A stretch of 64,000 nucleotides of DNA from a virus: the IMG/VR virus record IMGVR_UViG_3300045988_076196, positions 32,001-96,000 of that record. One strand, 5' to 3'. How positions within the stretch are numbered: the first letter of the stretch is position 1; the number at the start of each line of letters is the position of its first letter. The notes below the pieces were generated by a model that saw only the letters and a program-made list of their open reading frames with translations, ran no database searches and was not told where the DNA came from. Positions 10,953 through 49,006 of this stretch are shown one piece after another. The position numbers were made by a program, and so were the translations under genes.

Positions 10953-10962
10953 AATATAGTAA

Positions 10963-11049: not shown

Positions 11050-11078
11050 TTGACATATCTATCATAATATGATATAAT
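11050..11078 (+). promoter_or_regulatory. Consensus sigma70 promoter with extended -10 (rightward, inner)
   Basis: TTGACA-TATCTATCATAATATGA-TATAAT, about 30 nt upstream of the SD of the first rightward gene. Confidence 0.7.
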
Positions 11079-18403: not shown

Positions 18404-20248
18404 ATGAAGAGTCAAATGGGAGGACTTCGTAGGAAGTTTATGTCCAACCACTTAATCACGACCGAGGCATGGTCTGGTAAAAGCAAATCGGAAGAGAAAG
18501 AGCAAAACGCAATAGAGTGGCTGACTCTTTTTTAGTTCCGTAGGAATTGGCACATATATGTAGATATGGTGCTTGGTATTAAGCTAAGGCCATTCCAGAT
18601 GGTTATGATATATTTAATGGGTATATCTCCATTCTTTTATGCAATCTGTTCTAGAGGTTTGTCAAAATCATTTATGGCTGGACTTGGAGCAATATGTAAG
18701 ATGAATCTATATCCGTATAGCGAGATTGTTATTACATCGTCTACTGTTCAACAGGCTAATAAATTAGCTGATAAAAAGATACGCGATGAAATAATTAAGA
18801 AGCTCTCAAGTTATTTGTTATACATGTACGAGCATGAGTATATAGTTATAACAAAGCCGGATGATGGTACAAAGATAGAAAATAAGTTAAATGGCTCAAC
18901 TATTGTTGTATTGCCGTGTACTGAGGCAAGCCGTGGTGAACGTGCAACACTGCTTATTTATGAAGAGGTGCGTTTGCTTAAAAAGACAATTCTTGATGCG
19001 GTCTTTGAAAAGATGCCACACCCAAGACAGGCCAAATATATGGATAATCCTGTTTATGGGAATAATAAACGATGGATTGAAGAATGCCAGCGTATCTACA
19101 TTACGTCCGCAAGATATAAATATGAATGGTTTTGGCGTTCTTTTAAGAATGTGTTCACTCAGCATTTTATAGACAAGCGCGTCAATCATAATGTTTTTGC
19201 TGGTGATATATTTATGGCAATAGATAATCGCTTAAAGACGTGGGCTGATTATCGCAAAGACAAGGCGGAGTCTGAGATGGATTGGAAAATGGAAGACCTC
19301 AACCAGATGATAGGCGAGGCTGAGGATGCGTTTTTCACATACGAGCAATTTAAGACAGCGCAAATTTTACAGCATTGTTTTAGACCTCTTACATACCTTG
19401 ATTTCTTCTCTGGTGAACAGGTTGATTTTCCAGAGAAAAAGGAAGATGAAGTGCGACTCGTTGTGGTTGACTACGCATTTTCCAACACTACTGGTTGTAC
19501 AAAGAACGACAATACCATTATTACGCTCATGTCGGCGCATTGGGATAAAAAGAAAAATCGGTTTGAACGTCATATTGATTATATAGAGGGACATGATGCT
19601 TCTGACACAATAGGCGCATCTGATAGAGCGAGATACTTATGGTGGGTATATGATGCGGATTATCTATGTCCCGATGGACGCTCTGGTGGTGAAGTTCTAT
19701 TCAATCATATGACAGAGCCATTGTCTTGGCCGGAATTAGGACTTAGGTGGAATAAGCACGGATTAGGTCTTGCAGATAAATACCAGATGGTTCCACAAGC
19801 AAAATTGGATGATTATAGAAGTCGTGTCGTTGACAAAGATGCAGTTCCAGCTATTATACCCGTGATAGGCACACCAGAGTTGAACTCTACTGGTTGGTTG
19901 TCACTGCGTAAACAGCTTGAAACTAACAATATGAAATTCCTTATTTCTATGCAAGATTATCAGAATGAGCTAACAGATAGTGGTGAATATTATAAATATA
20001 CTGCTGAAGAATTAGTTAATCAGCTTGAGCCATACGGACAGACAGATATGACAATCATAGAGGCAGTTAATCTAAAGACGGTTATTAAGCAAGATAAAAT
20101 CAAACTAGAAGAACCGCGCACAGGAACTAAGGATAGAATTGTAACCATTATGTATGGAAATTATATTATTGACTTGATTGAGAACGCATGGCAACAACAG
20201 TTACAAGAAGATGAGTTTGATGTTGATTCGATTCAATTAGTATATTAG
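18404..20248 (+). CDS. terL: Terminase large subunit with an in-frame TAG at 18533-18535
   Basis: Walker A-like CSRGLSKS, Walker B-like LLIYEEV and nuclease-like VVVDYAFS. GGTGGTGA SD precedes the ATG at 18404, but there is no SD before the track start at 18566. The frame is continuous through the TAG (...AIEWLTLF*RRNWHIYVDMVLGIKLRPFQ). Confidence 0.8.
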
Positions 20249-20398
20249 TATTTGCCTATGAAGCGGTAGCTATGTTGGTGTGTTGCCGTGGAGGCACTAT
20301 TAGGGTTGTGTGGAATCCAAGTTCCAACTGAGGCTTAATCAAAAAAAGTTGAAAATAAAAACACTCAAAAAATATAAAACAAGGAAAGGAGGTTGAAG

Positions 20399-21976
20399 AT
20401 GCCAAAAAATAATGAAGATGTGAAGCTGTCTAAAAATGACCTTCAGGATATTATTGATTTTAGTGCAGGTCTGATGGCGGTTGATAATTTTTACTCACCA
20501 TTTCTGAGCAACCAGCTATTGACCAATCTAAACAATAATCCTCGTCTACCTAATGCAGAGGCGGTAAAAAAGGCGCTCAATGATTATAAGAATAGCGGCG
20601 CCGATTTACAGGGTTTTGTAGAATTTGCATCAGCGTTTGATATGATTTTCAAGCGCACTTTATATTCTTATGCAAATGCGCTATCTTTCGACCTTCAGAT
20701 AACGTGCAAAAATGCATATACAAAGGGCGACTATGAATCAGAGGAATATAAGAAAGACCGGCAGACAGTAGATAATTTCTTGACCAATTTTGATTACAAG
20801 AAAGAATTTTATAATGTTCTGCTAAATGTCTTAAAGCGCGACTCATATTTTACTTGGTTTAGAAAGACTAAGAGCGGTAATCGCGGCAAGATGAAGTATG
20901 CTCTACAAATTATGCCACAAGATTATTGTATGCTTACGGGGTACTTTGAAAAAGGGTTGCTGTGGTCTTTTAATGTACTGTATTTTATGCAACCGGGCGT
21001 AGATATTGAGGGATTTGACCCAAGTCTCAAAAAGACATATCTTGATGCGATTGAAAATGCTGAGTTAAATTACAAGCCGTCTGCGCCACTCGATAAACGT
21101 AATGGTAGTTATGCTCTATGGGCAGATGTATCACCACTTAATGGTGCTTATGCTTGGAAATTTTCTACAGATAACTTTGCTAACAATCCATTCTTATCGC
21201 CATATGTAGCAAATGTTTTACGTAGTGATGAGGTTGGAGAATTACAGTATAACAAAGATCTTATCTCTGCGGCTGGTATTCTAGCTGGTGAGATTAGATT
21301 ATTTGATTCAGCCAAGTCAGGCACGAAGGCGAATCAGTTCGCCATTGATCCGAAAACGCTTGGTGCATTTATGCAAAAGGCGGCTAATGGACTAAAGAAT
21401 GCTGCCAAACTAGCAGCTATACCACTTGAGAATATTAAATATTTCCAATTTGAGGATAAGAACCCAAATAGCTATACAAATGAGCTAACTACAACAGCTG
21501 GTATTGGTACTGGCATTAGCCGTGTTATCTATTCATCCGATAAGATGAGTAATGCTGAACTAGAGGCGGCGCTTAATGAGGTCTATCAGACCATGAAGCC
21601 AATGTATGCTCAGTTCAATAATTTCCTTGATTTCTATGTGAATCAAATGACAAGCAAATATAAGTTTAAGTTTGAGTTTGTTGGTTCTAACTATCAATTT
21701 GAGCGCGATGCTAGATTTGATAAGATGATGAAAATGGCTGATAAGGGGCTTGTACTCAATTCATCTGCATGGGCTAGTGCTGTTGGTATGAACCCTGTCA
21801 CATTTGATAGGATGCTTGCTGAGAGTAAATATACTGGATGGATTGATAAGTATTCGACCATGATGCTTAACGCTAATACATCGTCTTACAAAGATAATAA
21901 GGGCGGGCGTGAACGCAAGAACGCTAGAGATTTGACCGATTCAGGCGAAGCAAGCCGAGAAACATTAGAGGAATGA
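20399..21976 (+). CDS. Portal protein (by size and position)
   Basis: About 525 aa, directly after terL. AAAGGAGG lies upstream. Confidence 0.6.
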   Translation: MPKNNEDVKLSKNDLQDIIDFSAGLMAVDNFYSPFLSNQLLTNLNNNPRLPNAEAVKKALNDYKNSGADLQGFVEFASAFDMIFKRTLYSYANALSFDLQITCKNAYTKGDYESEEYKKDRQTVDNFLTNFDYKKEFYNVLLNVLKRDSYFTWFRKTKSGNRGKMKYALQIMPQDYCMLTGYFEKGLLWSFNVLYFMQPGVDIEGFDPSLKKTYLDAIENAELNYKPSAPLDKRNGSYALWADVSPLNGAYAWKFSTDNFANNPFLSPYVANVLRSDEVGELQYNKDLISAAGILAGEIRLFDSAKSGTKANQFAIDPKTLGAFMQKAANGLKNAAKLAAIPLENIKYFQFEDKNPNSYTNELTTTAGIGTGISRVIYSSDKMSNAELEAALNEVYQTMKPMYAQFNNFLDFYVNQMTSKYKFKFEFVGSNYQFERDARFDKMMKMADKGLVLNSSAWASAVGMNPVTFDRMLAESKYTGWIDKYSTMMLNANTSSYKDNKGGRERKNARDLTDSGEASRETLEE

Positions 21977-30319: not shown

Positions 30320-30526
30320 AAAAATTGCCCTCTGCGTTAAGTAATTAGCGTATGACTTCGGGTTAAATGCTTTGAATCCCTAAAGCCCACATACCTAAAC
30401 AGTAGTTGGAAACGACAAGCTGAATGGTTACGAAAGTAGAAAAAAGTTGTGGGATGGCTATACGGTTAAATCCTAAGTAGCTTATACCGATAAAATGGGT
30501 GTTTAGCAGAGAAGTCCCTAAATATA

Positions 30527-30555
30527 TTGACATATTTATAACAATGTGATATAAT
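30527..30555 (+). promoter_or_regulatory. Consensus promoter inside the intron
   Basis: TTGACA-TATTTATAACAATGTGA-TATAAT (N17, TGn extended -10). Confidence 0.6.
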
Positions 30556-30767
30556 ATACATGGGAAACTTTCAACGAATATCTCCTTGTGGGAGAAGTAG
30601 AACCTCAAGCATATGGAGGAAGAAAAATCCGACCCCTATAAAATAGGGTGAACATATATTCTACTCTCATGTGAAAGCATGAGCAGACTGCTAGTAATAG
30701 TAAGTCGATATTGGCGTTGCGAACCAATATGAATACAAAATATTTTATACTAAAAGGAATGTTATGT

Positions 30768-31841
30768 ATGTTGTTATCAAAAGTTGTTAAGTTGAAATGG
30801 AACACAAAGAATAGAAAACATTACGAAAGTATTGGATATATATTTACTAAATATGGTGATGAATTTGATGTAAAAGTCGAAGATTTGACACCTTCTAGTA
30901 AAGTTGTTGTTGAGGTTGAATGTGACTTTTGTCATAGCGTTGTTGTGAAAAAGAAATATCAAACATATAATATACAGCATCACGAAAAATATGGGGATTG
31001 TTGTGCATCATGCCAATCTAAAAAGAATAAGTTGATATGTATGGATAAATATGGCGTTGACAATGGTTCTAAGACAGAATATGCCATTGAAAAAATAAAA
31101 CAAGTTAGTATGGAGAGATATGGTGTAGATAACCCATCTAAGATAAGCGATGTAAGACGCAAGTTAAGCGAAATAGCTAAGGCTAATTCAGAAGATGTTA
31201 TCACTAAGAGAAATCAGACCATGCTAGAAAAATATGGCACGACATCACCAATGGACTTAGATATTGTCAAAGAGAAACAACGTGATACTCTATTGAAGAA
31301 TTATGGCGTTGAGCATCCAAAGCAAAGTGAAGAAATAAAAATGAGAGAACGTCAACGGAATATTGAGAAATATGGTGTTGATAATCCTATGAAACTTAAA
31401 TCCGTAAGAGATAAGATAAAGGCAACGTGTCTTGAAAAATATGGCGTTGAATGCTCATTAAGCTCACCAGATGTTAGAGCTAAAATTAACAAAACATTAC
31501 TTGAAAATGGTAATGTAAAAACATCTAAACAACAACTTCAACTACAACAACTATTAAAAGAAATATATGGAGATTGTGACTTAAACAAGCCGTGTGGTTC
31601 ATGCTTTCTTGATTGTGTAATTGAATATAATGGTGTCAATATAGATATTGAATATGATGGTGAATATTGGCATCAAGATACACAACAAGATAGGCGTAGA
31701 GACGAATTTGTCAAATCACAAGGATATAAAATTCTGCGCATTCGTGGAAGATATGACATTCCAAATAAAGAACAACTTGTGAAACATATTGAAGAATTGG
31801 TAAATTCACAACATACATTCGATATAATTAAAATGGTATAA
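30768..31841 (+). CDS. Intron-encoded endonuclease: six YGV(D/E)NP-type repeats plus a C-terminal Vsr/EDxHD-like nuclease domain
   Basis: Repeats of the form KYGVDNGSK, RYGVDNPSK, KYGTTSP, NYGVEHPKQ, KYGVDNPMK and KYGVECSL occur about every 27 aa. The C-terminal segment is NIDIEYDGEYWHQDTQQDRRRDEFVKSQGYKILRIRG. The track start at 30711 is probably too early (AAAGGAA precedes the ATG at 30768). Confidence 0.7.
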   Translation: MLLSKVVKLKWNTKNRKHYESIGYIFTKYGDEFDVKVEDLTPSSKVVVEVECDFCHSVVVKKKYQTYNIQHHEKYGDCCASCQSKKNKLICMDKYGVDNGSKTEYAIEKIKQVSMERYGVDNPSKISDVRRKLSEIAKANSEDVITKRNQTMLEKYGTTSPMDLDIVKEKQRDTLLKNYGVEHPKQSEEIKMRERQRNIEKYGVDNPMKLKSVRDKIKATCLEKYGVECSLSSPDVRAKINKTLLENGNVKTSKQQLQLQQLLKEIYGDCDLNKPCGSCFLDCVIEYNGVNIDIEYDGEYWHQDTQQDRRRDEFVKSQGYKILRIRGRYDIPNKEQLVKHIEELVNSQHTFDIIKMV

Positions 31842-31854
31842 AATATAATTAGGT

Positions 31855-32790
31855 AATGCACTAATCGGTAAATATTATCATGATTCTGGTCTAACTGTTC
31901 AGATTACTGACTCTTGCTTCAAGCTAGAGTATATTGCGGCCAATCTTGGTGTTGATCTACAGAAGGGCGGTCTTGGTGTTTATCAGGGCGAACTGGTTGT
32001 TCAGACTGCTGGTAAGGTCACTCTACCACAGGCTCCAACCGCCGTTGCTGGTTCACTAATTGGTTGGTATCGCACTCCTAGCGAGAAGGATTATACTGTT
32101 GGTACAATTACTGAGGCGTCCGGTGTATACACAATGGAAATTGCCAATGCTAAGGTTGGCGAGAAGTATTGTGTTATGTATTTCTATCAGAATGCTAATG
32201 CTGATAGCATTATCATTCCAGTTGACTATGTACCAGACGAGCTTCACGTCATTATTATCAATGACCTGTTCAATGCGGATATTTCCACTACGAACAATGC
32301 AACTAAGGTTGGCCGTCTAATTACTGATATTCCTAGACTACAGCTTGATGGCGCACAAGACCTTAATCTTACTGCAACTTCCGCAGCTACTGTTTCTCTG
32401 TCTGGCTCTGCTCTAGCAGTTGACTCCACTGACTCTTGCGAGAATGAGTCTTACTATGGTACTATGACCGAGGAAGTCTTTGGCGCAAAGTGGCAGAACG
32501 AAGTAAAGGCTATTGCATTTGAGGATGCTGATATTAGCCTAAAGGCAGCTGGTAGCCAGACTCTAGTTTGCTATGTTCTATTTGACGGCAACAAGGCTCC
32601 TAAAATTGTTGACAATGCCAATTTTACATTTGCTGTCGAGGACGGAACTGAGAATGTGTCTGTCAATGAAAGTGGCGTTGTGAATGCAATCAAGGCTGGT
32701 ACAGCACATATTTCCGCAACTCTAAAGGGTGCTGACCCAGAGGTCAACCCAAGTGTTGTTGGTTATGCTGAGGTCACTGTAACCGCTTAA
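31855..32790 (+). CDS. Major tail protein, exon 2, with a C-terminal Big_2-like Ig domain
   Basis: The continuous frame reads ...NALIGKYYHDSGLTVQITDSCFKLEYIAANLG.... The C-terminal segment VSVNESGVVNAIKAGTAHISATLKG...GYAEVTVTA is Big_2-like. The exact 5' end is uncertain within 31849-31870. Confidence 0.6.
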   Translation, partial: NALIGKYYHDSGLTVQITDSCFKLEYIAANLGVDLQKGGLGVYQGELVVQTAGKVTLPQAPTAVAGSLIGWYRTPSEKDYTVGTITEASGVYTMEIANAKVGEKYCVMYFYQNANADSIIIPVDYVPDELHVIIINDLFNADISTTNNATKVGRLITDIPRLQLDGAQDLNLTATSAATVSLSGSALAVDSTDSCENESYYGTMTEEVFGAKWQNEVKAIAFEDADISLKAAGSQTLVCYVLFDGNKAPKIVDNANFTFAVEDGTENVSVNESGVVNAIKAGTAHISATLKGADPEVNPSVVGYAEVTVTA

Positions 32791-33588: not shown

Positions 33589-34120
33589 AGTTGAATTGCG
33601 TCGAATGCTGAAAGACCCCTTGCAAAAAGCTGTACAATATGTCGTTCAAAAGATATGGAATGAAAATCGCGAAGTAGTACGACTTGTTGTCTACGAGGTC
33701 TATCAGCCAACAGAATATGATAGAACTATGGGTTTTCTTAATGCGTGGGACTTTACAGGCGAATATTACAATCCACCAAGCATGAACTCTGTAGCACATG
33801 GTGAATTTTATTTCAAGCCCAGTGAAATGCCACTTGGCAGCACAGACCCAGAATCAGGAAATTATGCGCAACATATTGGTATTGCTGGAAGTTATAAGGG
33901 CGCAGATGCTCGTGAGTATCTGGCTGATATTATTTACGGTAATATAAAGTGGGGTTCTGGTTTTGGCATTGGAGATTGGCAAAGAAAGCGTGACGCATGG
34001 ACTGAGTTAAATAAGCGCATAGGCAGACGCAAGATGAAACAATGGATGAAAGAAGGCATGGAGGCGGCTGGGCTTACTGTACAGATGCACAATACGCCGC
34101 TTCATGTCGAGGAAAGTTAA
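33569..34120 (+). CDS. Hypothetical protein
   Basis: AGAGGTGG lies 6 nt before the ATG, giving an independent start rather than a frameshift product. Confidence 0.55.
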   Translation: MPTARSEVELRRMLKDPLQKAVQYVVQKIWNENREVVRLVVYEVYQPTEYDRTMGFLNAWDFTGEYYNPPSMNSVAHGEFYFKPSEMPLGSTDPESGNYAQHIGIAGSYKGADAREYLADIIYGNIKWGSGFGIGDWQRKRDAWTELNKRIGRRKMKQWMKEGMEAAGLTVQMHNTPLHVEES

Positions 34121-34121
34121 T

Positions 34122-34637
34122 ATGGTTATATGTGGACTTGATGCAAGCACCTCTTGCACTGGATGGTCTATATTTGATAATGGTGAACTCATTGCATATG
34201 GCGCAATCAAGCCCAAGGGTGATGATTGGCACGATAGGGTAATGGGGCTTACTATGGAATTATCAAAAATATTTAGACAGTATCAACCCACCATTATCTA
34301 TGCAGAGGAAGTGCCATTAAAAAAAGGCGCATCTACTATAGAAAAATTGGGCGCAGTGCAAGGCGTGATTTTAGCATTATGCGCTGGCTTCAAGATAAAG
34401 CCATGCTTCTTGATGCCAAGTAAATGGCGTGGCGACCTTAATCTCTTTGATGGCACAAGAGCCGGATTACAAAGAGATGTTCTGAAGAAAAAAGCCATAG
34501 AGATGGCGAATGAAGAATTTGGCCTCGAATTGGCATGGGTTGCCCCAAGTAGCAAAAAGAATGAGGATGATTGCGCGGAAGGAATCCTCATAGCCTACTC
34601 ACAAATTAAGAAAAAAGGGAGTGTGATGAATGGCTAA
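34122..34637 (+). CDS. ruvC: RuvC-like Holliday junction resolvase
   Basis: VICGLDASTSCTGWS (first catalytic Asp), IIYAEEV (Glu), and a RuvC-like length and hydrophobic pattern. Confidence 0.65.
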   Translation: MVICGLDASTSCTGWSIFDNGELIAYGAIKPKGDDWHDRVMGLTMELSKIFRQYQPTIIYAEEVPLKKGASTIEKLGAVQGVILALCAGFKIKPCFLMPSKWRGDLNLFDGTRAGLQRDVLKKKAIEMANEEFGLELAWVAPSSKKNEDDCAEGILIAYSQIKKKGSVMNG

Positions 34638-35007
34638 AAGTTCAAATTACTCGATACTCGTTGATGCTGAGTTAGACTTAAAACAAATCACACAAAAACT
34701 TAATTCACAGAAATATAAAATAGATGTAGAAGCTAATATGACTGGTGATGCGGCAGACAAACTAAGAAATACAAATTCTGCCACTCGGTCATTAGAGGAA
34801 TCTACAGTGGATCTTACTCTTACATATCAGCAATTTAGACAAGTACTTGATTCTGTTATTGATGTAACGAGTAAAATGTATGAGCAAGTCAAGGCGTTAG
34901 ACACAGCACAAACGGAGTTTAAGAAAGTCTCGGACTTGTCTGGTCAAGCACTTGATGATTATACAGATAAACTTGCTCAGATGGGCAAGACAGTTGGCCG
35001 CACCGGT
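34630..35007 (+). CDS. Tape measure protein, exon 1
   Basis: AGGGAG lies 8 nt before the ATG. The exon ends ...LAQMGKTVGRTG. The frame stops 16 codons into the insert. Confidence 0.75.
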
Positions 35008-35345
35008 AAACCAAATCGGTCTGAGCCGGTATGTACAAATGGTAAATGTGCATAGAGAACAGCCCCTAAACCCTTGAAAGCCTCAAGAGCCTTATCACTA
35101 CAACATGAGGATGAGATAAGCCTGAGTGTGATTATTAACAATGAATCAGCGCGAAAGCAGAAAGACGATAAGGATGATTCCATGGTTGAAAAACCTAAAG
35201 AATCTGTCTTAAATAATGTATGATATTTGAGACAAAAGGGCAGATTGGGCGCGAAGCCGTGATGAGCGGTGTGTCAATCGAATATACAGGGCGACCCTCC
35301 AATTATATAGGGTGAAGAAATATTCAGGAAGGGATTAAAAACCCC

Positions 35346-35374
35346 TTGACAAATTATCTAATATGTGCTATTGT
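35346..35374 (+). promoter_or_regulatory. Sigma70-type promoter inside the tape-measure intron
   Basis: TTGACA-AATTATCTAATATGTGC-TATTGT (N17, TGn). Confidence 0.55.
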
Positions 35375-35400
35375 ATAGATACTTAAAGGAGGTATCTATT

Positions 35401-35625
35401 ATGTTCTTATCTATCGTATTTGCAATTTTTGTTTGGCCTGCCATTGCCATTGCTGGGTTGATTGCATTAGGTAAAGAAATTGGGAGATTGTTTCATAACT
35501 CAAGCGATTCAACCAAGCCGACCACTATACAGTCACAACGTAATATTCATTATGAAACACCTAAAGAAGAAGAGCGACGTACTAATTATTGGGGCATGGA
35601 TGATGAAAGGTGGGGCAAATTGTAA
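35401..35625 (+). CDS. 74-aa membrane protein (intron cargo 1)
   Basis: AAGGAGGT lies 8 nt before the ATG. The TM segment is MFLSIVFAIFVWPAIAIAGLIALG, followed by a polar tail. Confidence 0.55.
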   Translation: MFLSIVFAIFVWPAIAIAGLIALGKEIGRLFHNSSDSTKPTTIQSQRNIHYETPKEEERRTNYWGMDDERWGKL

Positions 35626-35705
35626 TGAATAATCTAGCTACAGTGTTCATCATTGGATGGTTCGTTTACATCATCTTATTTACAATTAGTTGTGTGAGGA
35701 AGTAA
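35625..35705 (+). CDS. 26-aa membrane peptide (intron cargo 2)
   Basis: TAATG overlap with cargo 1. The translation is MNNLATVFIIGWFVYIILFTISCVRK. Confidence 0.4.
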   Translation: MNNLATVFIIGWFVYIILFTISCVRK

Positions 35706-35707
35706 TT

Positions 35708-35824
35708 ATGGAAGATGTATATATTGTAGCAATCATCGCAACGGTAATCGTATTTGCCATCCTTATTTATCTTTGTTCCATGAGTGGCTATACAACAAAG
35801 CGCAAAATCCAGATGATTATATAG
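35708..35824 (+). CDS. 38-aa membrane peptide (intron cargo 3)
   Basis: The ATG is 2 nt after the previous stop. The translation is MEDVYIVAIIATVIVFAILIYLCSMSGYTTKRKIQMII. Confidence 0.4.
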   Translation: MEDVYIVAIIATVIVFAILIYLCSMSGYTTKRKIQMII

Positions 35825-35920
35825 ATATTAATAGAAAGAAACGAGATAAGGATATAGCACAGGTCAAAGCCCAAGAAAAGTATGACAATGATTGGGGATA
35901 TATTAGATAATTTATAACCG

Positions 35921-38900
35921 TCAGAGATGGTTGAAGCCGCAACGGAATTTCGCAAGAATAGTTTTAATGATTCTGATTCGGCAACGCTAGCAAAAGTAGC
36001 GACAATGTTTACTAATGTAGCAGATGAATCTATGTCTGCTGCTGATAGCGCATCGTTTATTATAGCTCAGATGAAGGCATTCAATATAGAGGCTGATGAT
36101 GCTTATAGGATCATCGATTCTGTGAATGCTGTGTCAAATAATTATGCCGTTTCATCTGGGCAATTAGCACAAAATCTAGGTAATATGTCTGCTGCAATGG
36201 CAACAGGCAATAATACATTTGAACAGTCTCTTGGTATGCTCACGGCTATGACTGAAATCACGAGGAATGCACCCAAGGGTTCAAGAGCGCTTATTACTGT
36301 ACAGGGACGTCTGAATCAGGTTGTAGACGAATCCTCAGATACGGGTAAGGCGTTAACAGCATGGTATCAAGAACACGCCATCGCTATTAAAGATGATGAA
36401 GGTCAAGTTCGTAGTCTATATGAAGTATTGACTGATGTAGCAAAGATTTGGCCTAAATTAACCAAGAATGAGCAGATGTACTATCTGCAACAGCAAGCAG
36501 GAACCACACAAACACAGAATCTTGCTGCTCTTCTAAAAAATTATCAAACAGCTATTGATGCAACCAATACAGCGCTAGAATCCAATGGTTCTGCCATGAA
36601 AGAAAATGAAGCCTACATGGAATCAATTTCTGCGAAGGAACAGGCTCTTGCAGCTGAATTTGAGGATTTTGCAAATCGTGTTTTATCTAAAGAGTTGGTT
36701 GGTGGATTCTTGGATGCTGGTAAAGCTATGCTTGATTTTGCCAACAATGATGTTGGTGCGGCCATTACTAGGATCACTGGATTCTCTACTACTATTGCAA
36801 GCTTAGTTGGTATTGCAGGTACGGTTATTGGAAAACTAAGTGAGATGAGAACATTGTTCTCAGCGACAAATGCAGCTGGCGGATTAGCGTCTATTTTAAC
36901 CTCACCAAAGACATTACTTATTATTGCAGGAGTAGCAGCAGCTATTGCTGGAATAGTTGAAGTTGTACAAGCGTTAAATCAGGCAGCAGAAAATAGGAAA
37001 TTTGAAAATCTTGTAAAGAATTTTGAAGAACTTGATAAACAAGCCAAAGACGCTGCTGATAAGCTTGAAGACGTCAAAAAGCGACTTGATGAGTTAAATG
37101 ATACTCCTGCAAAAGATAGAGGTCAAGATTGGCAGAATGAAATAGACAAACTTGAGACATTAAAGCAATATTATGAATATATTGAACAAATGCTTCAAAA
37201 ACAAGCTGCCGCTGCTCAAGAAGCTGCTTATAACGCTCCTCGTACTGTTGGTGTATCTGTTGATAAGAAAGTTGTTGAAACAGACGAGTATAGTAATAAT
37301 TTTCAAACATATATAAAAGAAATCGGTCAATATAAGACTGAACAGGAAGCTGTATATGCTCTTGCTGCTCAAGAGAGTATATCTTTTACAAATGAGCAAA
37401 CAGAGGCGCTATCAAAGTTGTATGATGAGACAGAGATAGCCGCACAGGGTTATGCTTATTTGAAACAAAACCTAGAAGATATTGGCTATACGTTCTCCAA
37501 CAACATTCAGACTGCTTCTGAATATGCATTATCTCAAGGCTCTGCTATGAAGGGTTTGGCCGTACAGATTGAAGAAACTAAAAAATATAGCACAGAGCTT
37601 ACACAGGCACAACAAGAGCAATACGATGCTTACATAAAGAATAATCAAGGACAGTATGAGTATCTGTCAGGTCTTCATAATTTAACAACTGAGCAACAAG
37701 CGTTCGTTGATGGATATAAAGCCATGGTTGATGCCATGGGTGATTATTCAGTTAATGTCGAAAATGTAGCTAATGAAGTTGAAAATATATCTAATTCGTT
37801 TGCGTATTATAATGAAATTGTAACGAACTATCAGGATGCAATGAATGGTGTAACCGGAGCTTCTGAAGCATTCGTTCAATCTCTGTTTGACCAAAATGGA
37901 CAATTAACTACAACAGCTCAAACGGCGCTAACCACAGACAGTGCGATGGCGAGTTACGCTACTTCTATCATACAGGCGCAACAAGCACAGTCTCAGGCTA
38001 ACTTTAATAATCTTATTCAGCAGATTGCATCAGTTGGACAACAGGCCACAATAACTTCCGAACAAATTGCTAATATGATGGTGATGGCTGGTGTTCAAAT
38101 TGGTGCTGGTGGTAGCGCTGAGCTTTCTAGGAATCTACAACGTACATACGAAGCTAAAACTGGCAAGAAAGTATCGCAGGACAAAGCTGCGTACAAACAA
38201 TGGTTACAAGATACCGCCTACCAAATCGGTCAAAATCAATGGAAACGTCAGCAAGAGGAATATGCGAAACAGCTTGAAGCCATAAAAGATTATGTCCCAG
38301 CAGAAAAAGCCGCCGAAGAAGCAGAAAAGCAAGCTAAGAAAGCCCAAAAAGCGCAAGAAAAGGCGGCTAATGAATCTCAGTCGGCATATGAATCAGCCGC
38401 AAAATCAGCAGAGCAAGCCGCGCAAGAAGCAGCTCGTGCCGCTGAACAAGCCGCAAAATCAGCAGAGCAAGACGCGCAAGAAGCAGCTCGTGCCGCTGAA
38501 CAAGCCGCTGAGGAAGCCAAGCAGAAAATTCTTGATTCTATCCAAGAACTAAAAGACGCATCTGATGATTTCTGGGATAGCAAAACAGACGCTGTTGAAG
38601 AAACCAACAAAGAGCTAGACCGCCAAAAGCAACTTGAAGAAAAGCTCAAAGCGCTAGAAGAAGCCAAACAAAAGAAAATCCTACTCTATAAGAACGGCCA
38701 GTTCCAATATGACAAGGATTATGGGACGATTGCTAAAGCTCAAGCTGATTATGAAGAAACCCGCGACAAGATTCAGCGCGAACGTGAGCTAGAGCAGCTT
38801 CAAGAGATGAAGGATAACGCCACTAAGATATTCAATGAAATGAAGGATATTGTTCAGAATGGCGGCAATGTCACTCAAGAGATGATTAACAGTTGGCTTT

Positions 38901-40999
38901 CTCAGATGCAAGCCGATGGGGCTGATTATTATGATAGCAACAAGAAAATGCTTGGTGAATGGCTGGATTGGGCTAAGGGTGCTATCAATGAAATTAGCAA
39001 CCAAGTAGCATCTGCTACTGGAGGTAGCGGAGGCGCTAGTGGTGGTTATGGTTCCGGTAGTGGCAGTGTTTCTGGACAATGGAGTCATCAAGACGAAACA
39101 AATCCATATGTTGCTTTTGGACAAGATACAATCCAAGAGATGCTTGAATGGATAAAAAAGATAGATAAATATCAAGACGATGAAGAGTTTATGAATGAGA
39201 TAATACGAAGAGCTGCTAGTGCTGGATATATTATTCCATCTAATGCAGGACTTCGTGGCAATCTAAAAATGAATCTTCTTGAAGCTCTTCAAAAAATTCT
39301 AGCGCCATATCAAAATCTAATTGAAACTAACACATCCAGCCCGTATGTTTATGCATGGAAGGGTTTATTTAAGGGTGAACTTCAGAGAGGTACTGACCTA
39401 GGTAGCAACACTGTATTTGCAGGATATCAGAACAAACTTTTGTCTGGCGCTATCGATGACCCATATGAAGAGCAGGAATATTATCAACGCAATCAAGCCA
39501 TAAAAGCTCTATACAATGAATACAAGAAAATAACAGACCAGCTTGGCTATATTCCAGATTATCTGAAAGATTTTATGGATATGGGGTCACAAATGCTCAA
39601 CAATGTTGACCTTGTTGCTAGAAAAATGGCTGATAATTACGATAATTTGTCTGCTAGTGGTAAAAGCCTGTTGGATTCTCTCATATCTGGCGAAGAGGAC
39701 TATGAGGCGGCTAATAAGATGCGCATTGCATATCTAGCCGAGAATTATAGTCCAGAGCGTCTTAGATATATGAATCTAGTCCGGGTGGCTGGTTCTTCCA
39801 GAAATGCAATGCAGTTGATGAATCAACGCACAGAGGAAGATAAAGCCCGTGATGAGGCACTGTATGGCGATTGGCTAAATGAGCTACGAGATAAGATAGA
39901 CAAAGCTGGCGGTGTTGTAACAGATGAGATTTACAAGTGGTATCTAAAAACAGCTGGTGGAGCATTAGGTGCTTATGGAACTGGCGACGCTCAGCTATAT
40001 ACAGATGTGTTTGCTGGTGGCGGCAAATATTTATATCGTGATCAAGAAGAGCTAGAGAGGCTTGGTTATCATGGATTCTTAGGTAATTTTGGCAACATCA
40101 GCGAAGGCGGGTTGTCTGATGTAACTAAGAATCTTGTTAAGAGCAAAATCCTAACGTCTACCACAGAAACAAACATTGATAAGCAAAAAGAGCAGATAAC
40201 TCAGAATAATATCAAAGGCATTAAAGATACTCTTGAGAAATATCAAGAGGGATATGGCGCAACTCAACACTGGATTGATGATGCAACCAAATACATCACT
40301 GATACTCTGAATAAAAACAACGAGGCGTTGTTGACAGCTGATGCAGAAACAAGAAAATCTTTACTTGCTCAAAATGAAGAGCTTGTGGGTATTCGTGATT
40401 CTCTTAGTGGTGTTGAGGCTGATGAAGATATTAACAAATTACCCGGCTCAACAACTGCTTACAATGATTGGGAGTTCAAGATTGATAACCCAACAGATGA
40501 AGAACTTGCGGCAAAAGCAGAACAACGTGCGCAAAAGTTGGCAGAACAAATGGCGGCAAATTCAGAGGCATGGTGGAACGCTAGTTCTAAAGCAGAGCAA
40601 GACGCTTTACACAAAGCAAACGAGGAGCTTGCTAAGAAAATCAATGATTTGACTGGTAGTAATTTGACATATGAGGGGTCGACTGGCACATGGTCAAAGA
40701 ACGCCTCTGGTACTCATAATTTCCGTGGTGGTCTATCCTTAGTTGGTGAGCGTGGCCCAGAGCTTAGAGTTCTTGGGCAAGGTGATAGTATCATTCCAGC
40801 TTATCAAACGGCAAACCTATGGAAATGGAGCGGTACAACACCTGAGAGTATGCTCAAAACGCTTGAATTGAGAAAAGGCGATGGGCGAAATTCTTACGTA
40901 TTCAATGTGTCTAAGCTCGAATTACCAAATGTTAACAATGCAAAGGAATTTGTGGCTGGACTAAAGAATTATGCGCTACAGTATAGTTATAAACGTTAA
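35921..40999 (+). CDS. Tape measure protein, exon 2
   Basis: The frame is open from 35918 with no SD. SEMVEAATEFRKNSF...AQMKAFNI... is the typical tape-measure core. It has long coiled-coil regions, Gly-rich and TM-like segments, and about 1690 codons. Confidence 0.9.
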   Translation, partial: SEMVEAATEFRKNSFNDSDSATLAKVATMFTNVADESMSAADSASFIIAQMKAFNIEADDAYRIIDSVNAVSNNYAVSSGQLAQNLGNMSAAMATGNNTFEQSLGMLTAMTEITRNAPKGSRALITVQGRLNQVVDESSDTGKALTAWYQEHAIAIKDDEGQVRSLYEVLTDVAKIWPKLTKNEQMYYLQQQAGTTQTQNLAALLKNYQTAIDATNTALESNGSAMKENEAYMESISAKEQALAAEFEDFANRVLSKELVGGFLDAGKAMLDFANNDVGAAITRITGFSTTIASLVGIAGTVIGKLSEMRTLFSATNAAGGLASILTSPKTLLIIAGVAAAIAGIVEVVQALNQAAENRKFENLVKNFEELDKQAKDAADKLEDVKKRLDELNDTPAKDRGQDWQNEIDKLETLKQYYEYIEQMLQKQAAAAQEAAYNAPRTVGVSVDKKVVETDEYSNNFQTYIKEIGQYKTEQEAVYALAAQESISFTNEQTEALSKLYDETEIAAQGYAYLKQNLEDIGYTFSNNIQTASEYALSQGSAMKGLAVQIEETKKYSTELTQAQQEQYDAYIKNNQGQYEYLSGLHNLTTEQQAFVDGYKAMVDAMGDYSVNVENVANEVENISNSFAYYNEIVTNYQDAMNGVTGASEAFVQSLFDQNGQLTTTAQTALTTDSAMASYATSIIQAQQAQSQANFNNLIQQIASVGQQATITSEQIANMMVMAGVQIGAGGSAELSRNLQRTYEAKTGKKVSQDKAAYKQWLQDTAYQIGQNQWKRQQEEYAKQLEAIKDYVPAEKAAEEAEKQAKKAQKAQEKAANESQSAYESAAKSAEQAAQEAARAAEQAAKSAEQDAQEAARAAEQAAEEAKQKILDSIQELKDASDDFWDSKTDAVEETNKELDRQKQLEEKLKALEEAKQKKILLYKNGQFQYDKDYGTIAKAQADYEETRDKIQRERELEQLQEMKDNATKIFNEMKDIVQNGGNVTQEMINSWLSQMQADGADYYDSNKKMLGEWLDWAKGAINEISNQVASATGGSGGASGGYGSGSGSVSGQWSHQDETNPYVAFGQDTIQEMLEWIKKIDKYQDDEEFMNEIIRRAASAGYIIPSNAGLRGNLKMNLLEALQKILAPYQNLIETNTSSPYVYAWKGLFKGELQRGTDLGSNTVFAGYQNKLLSGAIDDPYEEQEYYQRNQAIKALYNEYKKITDQLGYIPDYLKDFMDMGSQMLNNVDLVARKMADNYDNLSASGKSLLDSLISGEEDYEAANKMRIAYLAENYSPERLRYMNLVRVAGSSRNAMQLMNQRTEEDKARDEALYGDWLNELRDKIDKAGGVVTDEIYKWYLKTAGGALGAYGTGDAQLYTDVFAGGGKYLYRDQEELERLGYHGFLGNFGNISEGGLSDVTKNLVKSKILTSTTETNIDKQKEQITQNNIKGIKDTLEKYQEGYGATQHWIDDATKYITDTLNKNNEALLTADAETRKSLLAQNEELVGIRDSLSGVEADEDINKLPGSTTAYNDWEFKIDNPTDEELAAKAEQRAQKLAEQMAANSEAWWNASSKAEQDALHKANEELAKKINDLTGSNLTYEGSTGTWSKNASGTHNFRGGLSLVGERGPELRVLGQGDSIIPAYQTANLWKWSGTTPESMLKTLELRKGDGRNSYVFNVSKLELPNVNNAKEFVAGLKNYALQYSYKR
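38396..38503 (+). repeat. Tandem 54-nt (18-aa) repeat x2 inside the tape measure gene
   Basis: 38396-38449 and 38450-38503 differ at 1 nt (AAKSAEQAAQEAARAAEQ versus AAKSAEQDAQEAARAAEQ). Confidence 0.85.
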
Positions 41000-46673: not shown

Positions 46674-47810
46674 TTGGCAGATAAAAAGGAAACATTGCAT
46701 CAAAAAACAAGTAGCGGCGCATATGATACATTGTATGTAAATACGACCGCAACACGCACCTTTGTCAGCTCTAGCATTAACACTAAGCTAGGATTGACAA
46801 ATGGCAACATTGACCAAGCTATAGCACGAGTTGTAAGCGATTTGAAAAATACAGGTTTAATTCATATTCGTGTAACAGATAATAGCGGTATACCTATAGT
46901 AGGGGCTGTTATTACAGGATTAGAAAACACAGTTACAACTGGTGAAAACGGTGAGGTATTTGGGAAAATTGGCAATGCTACGTCTATGACCGTAACTCCG
47001 CCATATGCTGATTTTTTACCAAAAACAGTATCGCTTAGCACCTATGTGTCATCTTTTAGTATTTTTGTTGTGAGACTCGATAGGATTGCAGATAATACAA
47101 TAAATAGATATAGCAGCTCTACTACTCTAAGATTTTCAAATAATGTTGCATCGGTTGACGTTTGTTGCGTAGCAGGCGGCGGCGCTGGAGGCGGATATAC
47201 AGCATATAGCCAAAATGGTGGCGGTGGCGGTGGCGCTATTGTAAATTCTTATAATATTGCCGTCACTCCTGATACTGATTATCCGCTAATTGTTGGCTCT
47301 GGTGGCTTATATGAAAGAAGTGTAGGAACTGGTGGTGGCGGTTCAGCTTCTGCGGCAGATGGCGGTGAAACGTCATTTATGGGAGTAGTTGCGGCTGGTG
47401 GCAAAGGCGGTCAAGCTACTGCTGGCGGTGCGGCAGGTGCTGAAGGATGCGGCAATGGTGCTCATGCTGCGAATGGTGAAGCAAGCACTGTAGCAGAATT
47501 TGACGATACCAGTGCTGTACCACTACGATATTCAGGTGGAGGTGGCGGTGGATATTCAAGTAATGCCAACTTAAACCCACCACAAGAAATACCATACTAT
47601 GCTGGTGGCGAACCAAACGGCGCAGATGGCGCAGCTGTAAGATATATAATGGGTAGAGAAGAAACCAGAGTCGCTAGTGTAGCCAGTATTGGCGGTGGTG
47701 GAGGCGGCATGGCTGTTAGTCCAGCCAGTTCATCTACTAGTATTAGAACAATAATTGACGGCTCATCTGGTGGTAACGGTATAGTTGCAGTTCGCATTCA
47801 TTTTAAGTAA
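46674..47810 (+). CDS. Glycine-rich fibre or baseplate protein, paralogue A
   Basis: TTG start. It has a CarboxypepD_reg-like segment (IHIRVTDNSGIPIVGAVITG), several GGGGxG tracts, and a C-terminal GGNGIVAVRIHF. Confidence 0.55.
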   Translation: MADKKETLHQKTSSGAYDTLYVNTTATRTFVSSSINTKLGLTNGNIDQAIARVVSDLKNTGLIHIRVTDNSGIPIVGAVITGLENTVTTGENGEVFGKIGNATSMTVTPPYADFLPKTVSLSTYVSSFSIFVVRLDRIADNTINRYSSSTTLRFSNNVASVDVCCVAGGGAGGGYTAYSQNGGGGGGAIVNSYNIAVTPDTDYPLIVGSGGLYERSVGTGGGGSASAADGGETSFMGVVAAGGKGGQATAGGAAGAEGCGNGAHAANGEASTVAEFDDTSAVPLRYSGGGGGGYSSNANLNPPQEIPYYAGGEPNGADGAAVRYIMGREETRVASVASIGGGGGGMAVSPASSSTSIRTIIDGSSGGNGIVAVRIHFK

Positions 47811-47827: not shown

Positions 47828-49006
47828 TTGGCAGATAAAAATATTACAATTCGACAATTGAATAATGATGAAAATTATGACAAATTATATCCTACGACTA
47901 TAGCTGAGCAGTTAAAACTCAGTGCTAATACATCAGCTCTATTTGGCACATCTGTTAAGGATGCCGATGCCGCAATGGGTGTAATATGCGACCAGCTTGC
48001 AGATTTGAAATTTGTAACGATTAAAGTTGTAGACCGCACAGGAAATGGGTTGGCGGGCGTTCCTATTCAGGGGCTTGCTGGCACACCCAAGACAGGTAAT
48101 GACGGTACGGTTCGAGGCGTATGGATTAGTGACCCTGTTACAGCTGTATCACCTTATGTTGATTTGGCTAGTATATCTGATAACGCAGAATCATATGCTG
48201 GCACATTTAATGTGTTAACGCTTACATTGCCTTCTCTTTCCAATAATACAACTATTGATTATAAATCATCTACTACAGTCAGATTCAGCCGTAATGTAAA
48301 GAACATAGATGTATGTTGTGTTGGCGGAGGCGGTGGCGGTGTTTTACCATCTGATTCTACAGGCTCTCTTGGCGGAGGTGCAGGTACTGGTGGTGGCGGT
48401 GCTGGCATCGTAAATGCTATCGGCTATTATCCTCCAATTAACACTGATATCTCAATTATAGTTGGCACTGGTGGAGCAGTGGAAACCGCTTGGTATTATC
48501 TTAAAAATAGCGGTGTTCGTGCTGGTAATTCAAGTTTTGGTGATATTGTCGCATATGGCGGCACTAGTGGCTATTATACAGAAGTTGGAACTGGTAGATT
48601 TATATACCATGGTGGTGTTGAGGGAAGTTCTGGGTCTGGCAATGGCGGCGGATTTAGTTCTACTGTTGTCACTGAAGAGGATGGTAACGGCAAGGCAAAC
48701 ACCACTCTTTCAAAATTTAATGAAGGCGTAACATTCTATTCTGGCGGTGGCGGTATAGGCTATTATAATCCTGTTCAAGATGCATATGGACAAGAATATT
48801 ATCAGAGTTTTTCAGGCGGAAAGCCGAATGGCGCAGATGGTGGCGAAGTTCGTAAAAGATCTGGTACAGGCTATGATGTAACTGATGCAACAAAAGCTGG
48901 TATCGGTGGCGGTGGTGGTGGAGGCTATTATCATACTTCCACAGATTATGCAAATGCATCTGCTGGTGGTCAAGGGCTAGTATCTATCCGCATTCACTTA
49001 TATTGA
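47828..49006 (+). CDS. Glycine-rich fibre or baseplate protein, paralogue B
   Basis: The same architecture (MADKN..., VTIKVVDRTGNGLAGVPIQG, GGGGGG tracts, GGQGLVSIRIHLY). Confidence 0.55.
   Translation: MADKNITIRQLNNDENYDKLYPTTIAEQLKLSANTSALFGTSVKDADAAMGVICDQLADLKFVTIKVVDRTGNGLAGVPIQGLAGTPKTGNDGTVRGVWISDPVTAVSPYVDLASISDNAESYAGTFNVLTLTLPSLSNNTTIDYKSSTTVRFSRNVKNIDVCCVGGGGGGVLPSDSTGSLGGGAGTGGGGAGIVNAIGYYPPINTDISIIVGTGGAVETAWYYLKNSGVRAGNSSFGDIVAYGGTSGYYTEVGTGRFIYHGGVEGSSGSGNGGGFSSTVVTEEDGNGKANTTLSKFNEGVTFYSGGGGIGYYNPVQDAYGQEYYQSFSGGKPNGADGGEVRKRSGTGYDVTDATKAGIGGGGGGGYYHTSTDYANASAGGQGLVSIRIHLY

Follow-up and report, generated by a model that had tools for sequence, protein, structure and literature searches.

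A group I intron in a gut-phage tape-measure gene appears to carry a promoter-driven cassette of small membrane proteins kept by selection

Phage group I introns are usually described as ribozymes with homing endonucleases, and an intron that holds small hydrophobic reading frames in place of a nuclease gene raises the question of what such cargo does and why it is kept. The locus considered here lies in a stretch of viral DNA of 64,000 nucleotides, referred to as the window (positions 32,001 to 96,000 of IMG/VR record IMGVR_UViG_3300045988_076196). The carrier, a gut siphovirus of roughly 96 kb, has as its nearest cultured relative the virulent Enterocloster phage PMBT24, to which it is only distantly related; the carrier itself is probably virulent. 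A preliminary description of the DNA proposed that the tape-measure gene is split by an intron, that the intron carries, in place of a homing endonuclease, a promoter-driven cassette of three tiny membrane proteins, and that the cassette could be expressed in a moron-like way. Our analysis indicates that the intron does appear to carry such a cassette, and that the cassette appears to be kept by selection.

The interruption of the tape-measure gene, in frame, by a divergent group I intron is supported by the following boundaries.

35008..35920, + strand: group I intron of 913 nt, with the G at 35920 as its last base
34630..35007, + strand: tape-measure exon 1, 126 codons, C-terminal …GKTVGRTG; its final base is the U of the 5' splice-site U·G pair
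35921..40999, + strand: tape-measure exon 2, which begins SEMVEAATEFRKNSFND…
35911..35920, + strand: 3' tail of the intron, terminal G included, with the conserved motif …ATTARATAATTTRTAACCG/TCAGAG (here and below a slash marks the exon or intron junction)

Left unspliced, the frame of exon 1 would run for 16 more codons into the intron and stop at 35055. In-frame joining of the exons yields …GRTG/SEMVEAATEF…, and intron-free relatives read …AKTG/TEMV.AAT.F at the junction. The spliced tape-measure protein aligns with the intron-free Enterocloster phage genes as a single tblastn piece covering amino acids 4-376, and its Pfam PhageMin_Tail domain, residues 113-317, spans the junction 126/127. 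That the joined exons regain the motif of the intron-free homologues counts against a reading without an intron, in which two separate polypeptides make up the tape-measure protein. The proposed tape-measure intron is borne out by this uninterrupted alignment together with P1, P10, the terminal G and a covarying core, which are described next. The consequence for annotation is that gene callers break the tape-measure gene into two genes and call the cargo hypothetical proteins.

The whole ribozyme core falls within the first 340 nt of the intron; the helix labels are our assignments.

35008..35347, + strand: ribozyme core
35003-35007 (exon) with 35025-35029, + strand: P1, containing the splice-site U·G pair
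35030-35054, + strand: P2
35062-35065 with 35289-35292, + strand: P3, which covaries (C-G to U-A in 6 sequences)
35071-35075 with 35236-35240, + strand: P4 candidate, invariant and so uninformative for covariation
35280-35284 with 35321-35325, + strand: P7, assigned by covariation and by analogy with R and S elements
35294-35313, + strand: P8
35329-35347, + strand: P9, the last core hairpin
35020-35024 (UCUGA) with 35921-35925 of exon 2 (UCAGA), + strand: P10, read off the sequence, directly 5' of the P1 guide

The structure was derived from covariation because Rfam gave no usable match. The best match to RF00028 scored 12.1 bits (E = 1.2) against a gathering threshold of 50, and permissive Rfam searches were likewise without a usable group I match to this intron, whereas the same tool scored the neighbouring intron of a relative, L012, at 76.6 bits. 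In the proposed structure 99.4% of cells are paired and 26 of the 70 pairs show changes on both sides; slid controls gave 1-2 such pairs, and none of 500 shuffles reached 26. The U·G pair of P1 is present in 30/30 copies, and two P1 pairs have undergone compensatory change (C-G to G-C and C-G to U-A). In the assigned P7 one pair covaries (A-U becomes G-C or C-G in 6 sequences), and this helix crosses P3 to form a pseudoknot, which is a typical feature of group I introns. Two segments, GUGUCAAUCGAAUAUAC and GAAGAAAUAUUC, are similar to the classical R and S elements, and the terminal G is retained in every copy listed for the comparison of 3' splice sites. A pairing between the 3' tail and the P8 loop (35298-35309), which would close off the cargo, was checked by eye and dropped, as no consistent covariation was seen.

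The first element of the cargo region is a near-consensus promoter with the layout TTGACA-N14-TGnTATTGT, situated 3' of the last core hairpin and overlapping the 3' strand of P9 with its first two bases.

35346..35374, + strand: promoter of the sigma-70/sigma-A type with an extended -10; TTGACA, 17-nt spacer, TGcTATTGT
35386-35393, + strand: ribosome-binding site AAGGAGGT, 7 nt 5' of the ORF1 ATG at 35401

TTGACA occupies 35346-35351, TG 35366-35367 and TATTGT 35369-35374; the promoter is therefore the one named in the preliminary description, with TG counted inside the 17-nt spacer. Shuffled sequence would be expected to give 0.06 matches to the pattern TTGACA-N14-TGnTAnnnT, whereas the window has 7, so chance does not account for the promoter. 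Four of the 7 fall in the divergent early region 10738-11078, in agreement with the earlier claim that the cassette shares the architecture of the early promoters. A survey of 103 distinct copies of this intron recovered the -35/-10 pair in all 103 and the TG in 98. The -10 element reads TATTGT, TATGGT, TATAGT, TATGTT, TATTAT, TAGTAT or TATGAT, variation being found only at the less critical positions, and the distance between promoter and P9 differs in divergent copies. Relatives have equivalent ribosome-binding sites (aaggagg, aaaggag, gaggt) ahead of their first cargo ORF. No terminator-like site was found on the + strand between 35400 and 37358. The moron-like proposal is sustained in one part and fails in another: the cassette has its own promoter (103/103 copies, judged from sequence) and no terminator of its own, and the nearest cultured relative of its phage is virulent. 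Since no terminator follows it, the cassette would not be classed as a textbook or canonical moron, and with a probably virulent carrier the usual argument for prophage expression would not apply.

The promoter and ribosome-binding site are followed by the reading frames below.

35401..35625, + strand: ORF1, 74 aa; N-terminal membrane helix, variable linker and conserved acidic, aromatic-rich C-terminal tail …YETPKEEERRTNYWGMDDERWGKL
35625..35705, + strand: ORF2, 26 aa; little besides a membrane helix; TAATG overlap with the ORF1 stop
35696-35702, + strand: ribosome-binding-site-like GAGGAAG upstream of ORF3
35708..35910, + strand: ORF3 gene (family B), 67 aa in relatives; here 38 aa (35708-35824), with the stop at 35822-35824
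35698 to 35910, + strand: fourth frame, open and without ATG; TTG at 35725 and 35773

The three ORFs were recovered as first described, with 74, 26 and 38 aa, the TAATG overlap between the first two, a gap of 2 nt between ORF2 and the start of ORF3, and one hydrophobic segment each; the strongest hydrophobic 19-mers have mean Kyte-Doolittle values of 2.64 (ORF1), 2.37 (ORF2) and 2.96 (ORF3). Homologues of ORF1 form fifteen protein clusters, the distant ones 56-57% identical, and all five clusters that were looked up (P0001, P0007, P0008, P0013 and P0014) lie between tape-measure exons 1 and 2. The dN/dS of ORF1 is 0.11-0.24; its invariant residues include W12, P13 and G19, and its tail is conserved. 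The structure model of ORF1, of low overall confidence (pLDDT 66), consists of a helix at residues 2-31, a non-helical linker (residues 36-42 with pLDDT <50) and a helix at residues 54-64. A profile search with the ORF1 family returned only 8 clusters at 50% identity, of uniform size and with no functional lead. ORF2 is predicted from sequence to be translationally coupled to ORF1; four relatives (L004, L008, L012 and L014) conserve it, with a length of 25-28 aa and the TAATG overlap intact. Between the window and L012, ORF2 differs at 13.0 of 15.5 synonymous sites (0.84) and at 5.0 of 62.5 non-synonymous sites (0.08). It is confined to one sub-lineage and is missing where the first cargo protein is of a different subtype. 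The ORFs are thus conserved in related introns to different extents: only ORF1-type proteins are near-universal cargo, and purifying selection acts on both ORF1 and ORF2.

ORF3 is a paralogue among the cargo proteins, with the tail …KYDNDWGYIR in its intact form. A profile built from family B and related cargo proteins matched 1,228 protein clusters. The length is exactly 67 aa in 119 of the 120 best matches listed, and 9 C-terminal residues of the tail KYDNDWGYIR are invariant in 119 sequences among the matches listed. The window carries a 1-nt deletion, the A-run at 35804-35807 being A4 here and A5 in intact relatives; the alignment reads GCGC-AAAATCC in the window and L002, and GCGCAAAAATCC in L012 and L024. 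The frameshifted allele is also present in the independent assemblies L001-L003. The preliminary description had noted a fourth frame open to 35910 with no ATG and a TTG at 35773, which is accurate, a second TTG being located at 35725, and had offered either an unrecognised fourth product or a frameshifted tail of ORF3 as its explanation. The latter stands and the former is set aside, as the A4/A5 difference identifies the frame as the displaced C-terminal tail of ORF3, …NPDDYIDINRKKRDKDIAQVKAQEKYDNDWGYIR. Programmed -1 frameshifting between ORF3 and the fourth frame was also rejected: the sequence lacks a slippery site of the form X XXY YYZ, and in intact relatives the A-run is just one base longer. 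The broken ORF3 of the window implies that not every cargo gene is needed.

The composition of the cargo varies across the 103 copies. At least one clearly hydrophobic small protein is encoded in 96 of them, and the remaining 7 encode a weakly hydrophobic protein of 58-61 aa, the hydrophobic segment of which falls under our cut-off. A copy encodes one to four small proteins of 26-148 aa, each with 1-4 hydrophobic segments. In divergent cargo the number of membrane helices varies and the acidic tail is kept, ending aromatic-Gly-x-(I/D)-(D/E)-aromatic. A nuclease-sized ORF is found in 0/103 copies, the longest ORF (148 aa) being that of a multi-pass membrane protein, and neither strand of the window's intron contains an ORF >86 aa or one that matches a nuclease family. 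With the promoter in every copy, a membrane-protein cassette without an endonuclease, as first proposed for the window, is thus seen in nearly all of the copies surveyed. Comparison of the cargo with Pfam, PHROGs, PADLOC and NCBIfam gave no significant match, only hydrophobic-segment noise; matches to PHROGs nucleases and helicases were at chance level (E 0.02-0.15), and no homology to a characterised exclusion protein was detected in these four collections. A nucleotide search of the phage collection returned only a 47-nt match, and a protein search with ORF1 returned nothing. The comparison of intron-plus with intron-minus relatives showed that the intron-free homologues, including PMBT24, are without a detectable equivalent gene at this place.

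Over the intron core, identity to the window is 92-95% for most of the compared copies and 75-80% for three, whereas the flanking exons are 49-62% identical between the compared phages, the two closest relatives excepted. A core that is far more alike than the exons suggests that the intron has spread horizontally. Some relatives have a second intron 24 nt further downstream, with a homing endonuclease gene in four of them (L012, L013, L014 and L039) and no ORF in L043; the window has no adjacent second intron. The endonuclease of a neighbouring intron could mobilise both introns. When 185,579 bacterial and archaeal genomes, one per species, were searched with the exact 19-base core pattern, no genuine copy of the intron, and with it no host or prophage, emerged: all 35 matches were due to chance, and 34 came from genomes with 58-73% G+C. 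We also note that another intron had been suggested at ~30.3-31.9 kb of the window. The tail-tube gene starts at ~31897 and is unsplit, Rfam gave no match in that interval, and the endonuclease ORF found there may belong to an intron of the upstream gene or be free-standing.

As to what the cassette does, we consider it somewhat probable that it supplies early membrane proteins, driven by the host polymerase, for competition between phages, for example by blocking DNA entry. Host RNA polymerase would transcribe the cassette early in infection and independently of the late transcription of the tape-measure gene, the latter being possibly the task of a YonO-like polymerase; a polymerase gene resembling SPβ YonO is located at 11248-13134 (Pfam PF05183, E = 7.5e-8). 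The cassette proteins would then insert into the host membrane, and their tails probably face the cytoplasm, since positive charges follow each helix. Their likeliest role would be in inter-phage competition, in which the entry of a second phage's DNA is blocked. The model for such a role is gp15 of HK97, a small inner-membrane protein encoded by a gene that adjoins the tape-measure gene, which blocks genome injection in a manner dependent on the tail of the incoming phage (PMC3594210). A competitive benefit of this kind would explain the persistence and spread of a nuclease-less intron.

Lysis timing had been raised as another role, and a cassette of holins or antiholins, made late from unspliced pre-mRNA or from the excised intron in addition to transcripts from its own promoter, is in our judgement unlikely. 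Cargo of 26-148 aa, in which 1-4 hydrophobic segments are combined with a highly charged C-terminus, fits the generic picture of a holin as a small protein that has membrane helices and ends in a charged tail. The variation in helix number around a tail common to the cargo also fits, and no lysis cassette or endolysin was found among the 10 ORFs scanned in the window. The cargo, however, matches no holin family in Pfam, PHROGs or NCBIfam; its neighbours are the two tape-measure exons, with no endolysin gene nearby; a strong early-type promoter would be an odd driver for a lethal holin; and the holin of PMBT24 is annotated separately and is unrelated to the cargo.

A function in the phage's own infection cycle, either an early change to the host membrane or a transporter or an interaction with the tape-measure protein or the DNA-entry machinery, is no more probable than a holin. 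The early type of the promoter is consistent with it, and the strong conservation of the tails (the family B C-terminus) and of the ORF1 membrane helix points to a specific conserved binding partner. Against it, the intron-free tape-measure homologues, PMBT24 among them, have no equivalent gene, which makes the function dispensable for this phage type, and the inactivated ORF3 shared by the window and L001-L003 has been recovered in several independent assemblies.

It is quite improbable that the cargo is purely selfish, as a toxin or addiction module, or that translation of the ORFs regulates the folding or splicing of the intron while the proteins have no role. The last cargo stop codon is ~7-24 nt from the 3' splice site in the copies inspected, a position at which a terminating ribosome could occlude P10 and the splice site, and horizontal spread without a nuclease of its own would suit selfish cargo. 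The purifying selection on the amino acids and the retention of tail motifs even in ORF1, distant from the splice site, nevertheless argue for a function at the protein level, and no antitoxin-like partner for an addiction module is apparent. That the locus is non-functional, with decayed or chance ORFs and a promoter-like sequence kept only for its part in the RNA structure, or that there is no intron and two tape-measure polypeptides are made, is very improbable: the sub-threshold Rfam score, the two-base overlap of the -35 with P9 and the frameshift in ORF3 can be cited in its favour, but dN/dS is well <1, the promoter is kept in 103/103 copies while its position shifts relative to P9, P1 and P3 covary, the assigned P7 crosses P3 and contains one pair that covaries, P10 and the terminal G are in place, and the exon junction exactly regains the motif of the intron-free homologues.

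The favoured reading, early proteins for inter-phage competition, leads to a broader and more tentative proposal, which at present we regard as possible rather than probable: a widespread lineage of group I introns in human-gut phages, in which the endonuclease has been replaced by a promoter-driven, diversifying family of small membrane proteins that benefit the carrier, for example by exclusion of, or interference with, rival phages early in infection. The benefit of the cargo would account for the maintenance and spread of the intron, which would be mobilised in trans by the nucleases of neighbouring introns. If this is true, self-splicing introns would serve as vehicles for accessory fitness genes within essential coding sequences. 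If the cassette is beneficial, moron-type accessory genes would be able to enter essential genes by way of introns without disrupting them, a nuclease-less intron would have a route to persistence, and an unannotated family of gut-phage membrane proteins, with >1,000 clusters and a sharply conserved tail, would be open to experiment. No published precedent for such an intron cassette was found, and the known systems each resemble it in part.

Among phage group I introns, those of T4 td (I-TevI), T4 nrdD (sunY; I-TevII) and SPO1 DNA polymerase (I-HmuI) contain an ORF for an intron-mobilising homing endonuclease, and in the T4 sunY intron the core is 5' of the ORF. Like these, the present intron resides in a phage protein gene and places a peripheral ORF, with its own expression signals, outside the catalytic core. 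It differs from them in its cargo of one to four small membrane proteins, which are without a nuclease domain, and in its core, which is too divergent for Rfam. In the “collaborative homing” of T-even phages, a nuclease-less intron is mobilised by a neighbouring endonuclease. The present intron is similarly nuclease-less, its core is far better conserved than the exons, and an endonuclease intron is located downstream in some relatives; mobilisation in trans, however, is here a possibility suggested by sequence, and the window has no second intron.

A group I intron of the fungal mitochondrial large-rRNA gene carries rps3, which is not an endonuclease gene. Both introns therefore keep a gene other than that of a homing endonuclease. 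Nevertheless, rps3 is an organellar housekeeping gene without its own promoter, whereas the present cargo is an accessory, diversifying family behind an internal bacterial promoter. A review (PMC3073962) covers the proposal that “baggage” genes invade introns, and its reference list cites work on rps3. As with gene 15 of HK97, which encodes a YebO-related superinfection-exclusion protein, the cassette is an extra, promoted gene set for small membrane proteins in the tail operon, at the tape-measure gene. Its phage lineage, by contrast, appears virulent, so that expression from a prophage would be unlikely. It also differs from gene 15, to which it has no sequence similarity, in being without a terminator and in lying inside an intron within the tape-measure coding sequence itself.

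Comparison of related copies shows that the intron in the tape-measure gene (35008-35920, plus strand) carries a conserved internal promoter and small predicted membrane proteins that are under purifying selection, and no nuclease. The features discussed here are as follows.

Features of the tape-measure intron and its flanking exons (window coordinates)
34630-35007: exon 1 of the tape-measure gene, ends …GKTVGRTG
35346-35351, 35366-35367 and 35369-35374 (plus strand): intron promoter, TTGACA, TG (within the 17-nt spacer) and TATTGT
35386-35393: AAGGAGGT, 7 nt 5' of the ORF1 ATG (35401)
35401-35625: ORF1, 74 aa
35625-35705: ORF2, 26 aa, TAATG overlap with the ORF1 stop
35708-35824: ORF3, 38 aa, starts 2 nt after ORF2
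35698-35910: fourth frame, open, no ATG
35921 onward: exon 2 of the tape-measure gene, begins SEMVEAATEF

The protein encoded by the joined exons gives one continuous tblastn alignment (aa 4-376, 41% identity) with the uninterrupted tape-measure genes of the Enterocloster phages CB473P3 and PMBT24. The Pfam PhageMin_Tail domain spans residues 113-317 and crosses the junction between residues 126 and 127, where intron-free homologues in IMG/VR, a public viral contig collection, read …AKTG/TEMV.AAT.F. The exon sequence CCGGU (35003-35007) pairs with GCCGG (35025-35029), with a U·G pair falling on the splice site; UCUGA (35020-35024), directly 5' of this guide, is complementary to the UCAGA at the start of exon 2. 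The last intron base is G.

The core was aligned over the first 340 nt of 30 distinct copies, and a structure of 15 helices was scored. In this structure 99.4% of cells pair and both sides have changed in 26 of the 70 pairs, versus 1-2 when the structure is shifted by 1-3 columns; 500 shuffles all stayed below 26. P3 (35062-35065 with 35289-35292) and P7 (35280-35284 with 35321-35325) both covary, and the two helices cross each other, the predicted pseudoknot being that expected for the core of group I introns. Stretches similar to the classical R and S elements are also found. The Rfam model scores only 12.1 bits (E = 1.2) on this covarying core, compared with 76.6 bits on a neighbouring intron of relatives (4522-5640 of the relative locus L012); on these grounds the insertion is a divergent group I intron. 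The entire core sits 5' of the cargo, which occupies nearly all the space from P9, the last core hairpin, to the 3' splice site.

IMG/VR and metagenome contigs were scanned with conserved core patterns and, together with other loci, provided 103 distinct complete cargo regions. All 103 contain a -35/-10 promoter, with the extended TG in 98. In the 64-kb window, the pattern TTGACA-N14-TGnTAnnnT has 7 matches versus 0.06 expected, so the intron promoter is no chance match. Four of the seven lie in the divergent early region 10738-11078, in agreement with the likeness to early promoters proposed in the preliminary description; the others are the intron itself, 62656, and 30527, which is 5' of a 376-aa endonuclease ORF. 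The -35 element begins within P9 (35329-35347), with which it shares two bases. Variation of the -10 hexamer across intron copies is confined to tolerated positions, and in divergent copies both the promoter sequence and its distance to P9 differ, which argues that it is the promoter, not an RNA structure, that is constrained.

The three ORFs have the sizes, TAATG overlap, 2-nt gap and single hydrophobic segment that had been described for them; each segment is a strongly hydrophobic 19-residue stretch (mean Kyte-Doolittle 2.4-3.0). Lys/Arg residues come after the helix, and under the positive-inside rule this suggests cytoplasmic C-termini. Fifteen protein clusters are homologous to ORF1, with identity down to 56-57% in the distant ones; the five whose loci were looked up are all flanked by tape-measure exons 1 and 2. 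The dN/dS of ORF1 is 0.11-0.24 for the pairs permitting an estimate. The membrane helix FVWPAIAIAG and the tail YETPKEEERR.NYWG.DD..WGKL are kept while the linker varies; the structure model is of low confidence. ORF2 is found only alongside the window-type ORF1 subtype. Between the window and L012 it differs at 13.0 of 15.5 synonymous versus 5.0 of 62.5 non-synonymous sites, and an ORF2 of 25-28 aa with the TAATG overlap is retained where ORF1 is only 57% identical. Judged by this substitution pattern and by its retention in diverged lineages, ORF2 is a real micro-protein gene. In the same comparison (35401-35705), the differing synonymous proportion is 0.21 in ORF1 and 0.84 in the adjoining ORF2, and promoter and leader are 100% identical, which implies a mosaic cassette with recombination within the cargo.

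The A-run at 35804-35807 is part of GCGCAAAATCC in the window, against GCGCAAAAATCC in relatives. Adding the missing A fuses ORF3 with the fourth frame into a 67-aa protein, which is intact in six relatives (L012, L024, L036, L049, L085 and L087); by this comparison, ORF3 of the window is a broken gene. Assemblies of other samples carry the identical deletion (L003, and L002, which is 99.7% identical), which marks it as a real allele; since the displaced tail is still intact, the deletion is probably recent. Of the two origins offered earlier for the fourth frame, the frameshifted tail of ORF3 is retained and the separate fourth product is dropped. Programmed frameshifting joining the two was rejected, as no slippery site was found. 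A profile of the intact 67-aa family and related cargo proteins gives 1,228 protein clusters; among the 120 best listed, 119 are exactly 67 aa, and in those 119 the tail …KYDNDWGYIR is invariant and the membrane helix varies.

In 96 of the 103 cargo regions, one or more small ORFs have a clearly hydrophobic segment; the other seven form one subtype with a 58-61 aa protein and a weaker hydrophobic stretch. In more divergent copies, the cargo proteins contain between one and four hydrophobic segments and keep an acidic tail with the end motif aromatic-Gly-x-(I/D)-(D/E)-aromatic (tail examples: EYGIIDFF, NFGTIDYW, YDDWGFIE and EWGLDDDW). None of the 103 copies lacks cargo or has a nuclease-sized ORF, the longest being 148 aa, and the cargo proteins have no family match in Pfam, PHROGs, PADLOC or NCBIfam. 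The cassette is thus conserved in related introns, and the earlier view that its cargo is not a homing endonuclease is borne out.

The intron core is 92-95% identical to that of the window in most compared copies and 75-80% in three, whereas the adjoining 240 nt of exon 1 are 49-62% identical, the two closest relatives excepted. The far greater likeness of the core points to horizontal movement between diverged tape-measure genes, though without a nuclease. Five relatives (L012, L013, L014, L039 and L043) have a further group I intron 24 nt 3' of this one, with the 8-codon micro-exon SEMVEAAT between the two. In four of these loci the second intron codes for a homing endonuclease of 268 or 269 aa (hits to PHROGs phrog_559 and phrog_9084); in L043 it has no ORF. 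This endonuclease could carry the cassette intron along by co-conversion. Tape-measure genes of this phage group often have additional introns, which encode nucleases of the GIY-YIG or other types. No genuine intron copy was found in species-representative bacterial and archaeal genomes with an exact 19-base core pattern.

Candidate nuclease genes occur elsewhere in the window. The 376-aa ORF (30711-31841, plus strand) follows a perfect TTGACA-N17-TATAAT with TG at 30527-30555 and is probably a homing endonuclease, given its DUF7487 and DUF559/REase domains. The tail-tube gene starts unsplit at ~31897 and an Rfam search of 30340-31900 found no intron; the ORF may be free-standing or lie inside an intron of the upstream gene. 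A 393-aa ORF (9370-10551, minus strand) with a T5orf172/MUG113 domain, which we take to be related to GIY-YIG nucleases, adjoins the divergent early promoters. A RuvC-like endonuclease gene (34104-34637, plus strand; Pfam RuvC, E = 4.6e-6) overlaps the tape-measure gene start by 8 nt, and PMBT24 has the same order of genes. Elsewhere, the Rfam 'drum' RNA RF02958 (20253-20369, plus strand; 49.7 bits versus a gathering score of 43) lies between the ORFs 18566-20248 and 20393-21976, and the ORFs 46674-47810 and 47828-49006 (plus strand) are adjacent paralogues, each with a Gly_rich_2 domain. A 177-aa ORF (56701-57234, plus strand) has a weak, below-threshold match to a class II bacteriocin family (E = 2e-4), and 60147-62447 (minus strand) encodes a ribonucleotide reductase large subunit with a C-terminal TSCPD domain.

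The source is a ~96-kb metagenomic phage contig whose tail genes match the SPβ-type families YomU and YomN; among cultured phages, its closest relatives are virulent siphoviruses of Enterocloster, ~100 kb in size. Directly 3' of the early promoter cluster, a 628-aa ORF (11248-13134, plus strand) matches the Pfam RdRP family PF05183 (E = 7.5e-8), which we take to include the SPβ YonO DNA-dependent RNA polymerase. This match suggests, by analogy, that late transcription is carried out by a polymerase of the phage itself. The tape-measure gene and other late genes would then be read by the phage enzyme, and the host-type intron promoter would allow separate, early expression by host polymerase. 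The cargo proteins may insert into the membrane with their tails in the cytoplasm and act in competition between phages.

In structure, the nearest relatives of the cassette intron are phage group I introns that express an endonuclease gene from within (review PMC3073962); no report of such an intron with membrane-protein cargo was found in open-access papers and preprints. The proposed moron-like character holds for the promoter of its own in every copy, but the cassette departs from a canonical moron: no terminator was found after it, and its phage is unlikely to be temperate. In both respects, and in having no homology to it, the cassette differs from the HK97 gene 15 moron, which by analogy would nevertheless be its closest functional counterpart. 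That gene adjoins the tape-measure gene, and its product is a small inner-membrane protein that blocks genome injection in dependence on the tail of the incoming phage (PMC3594210).
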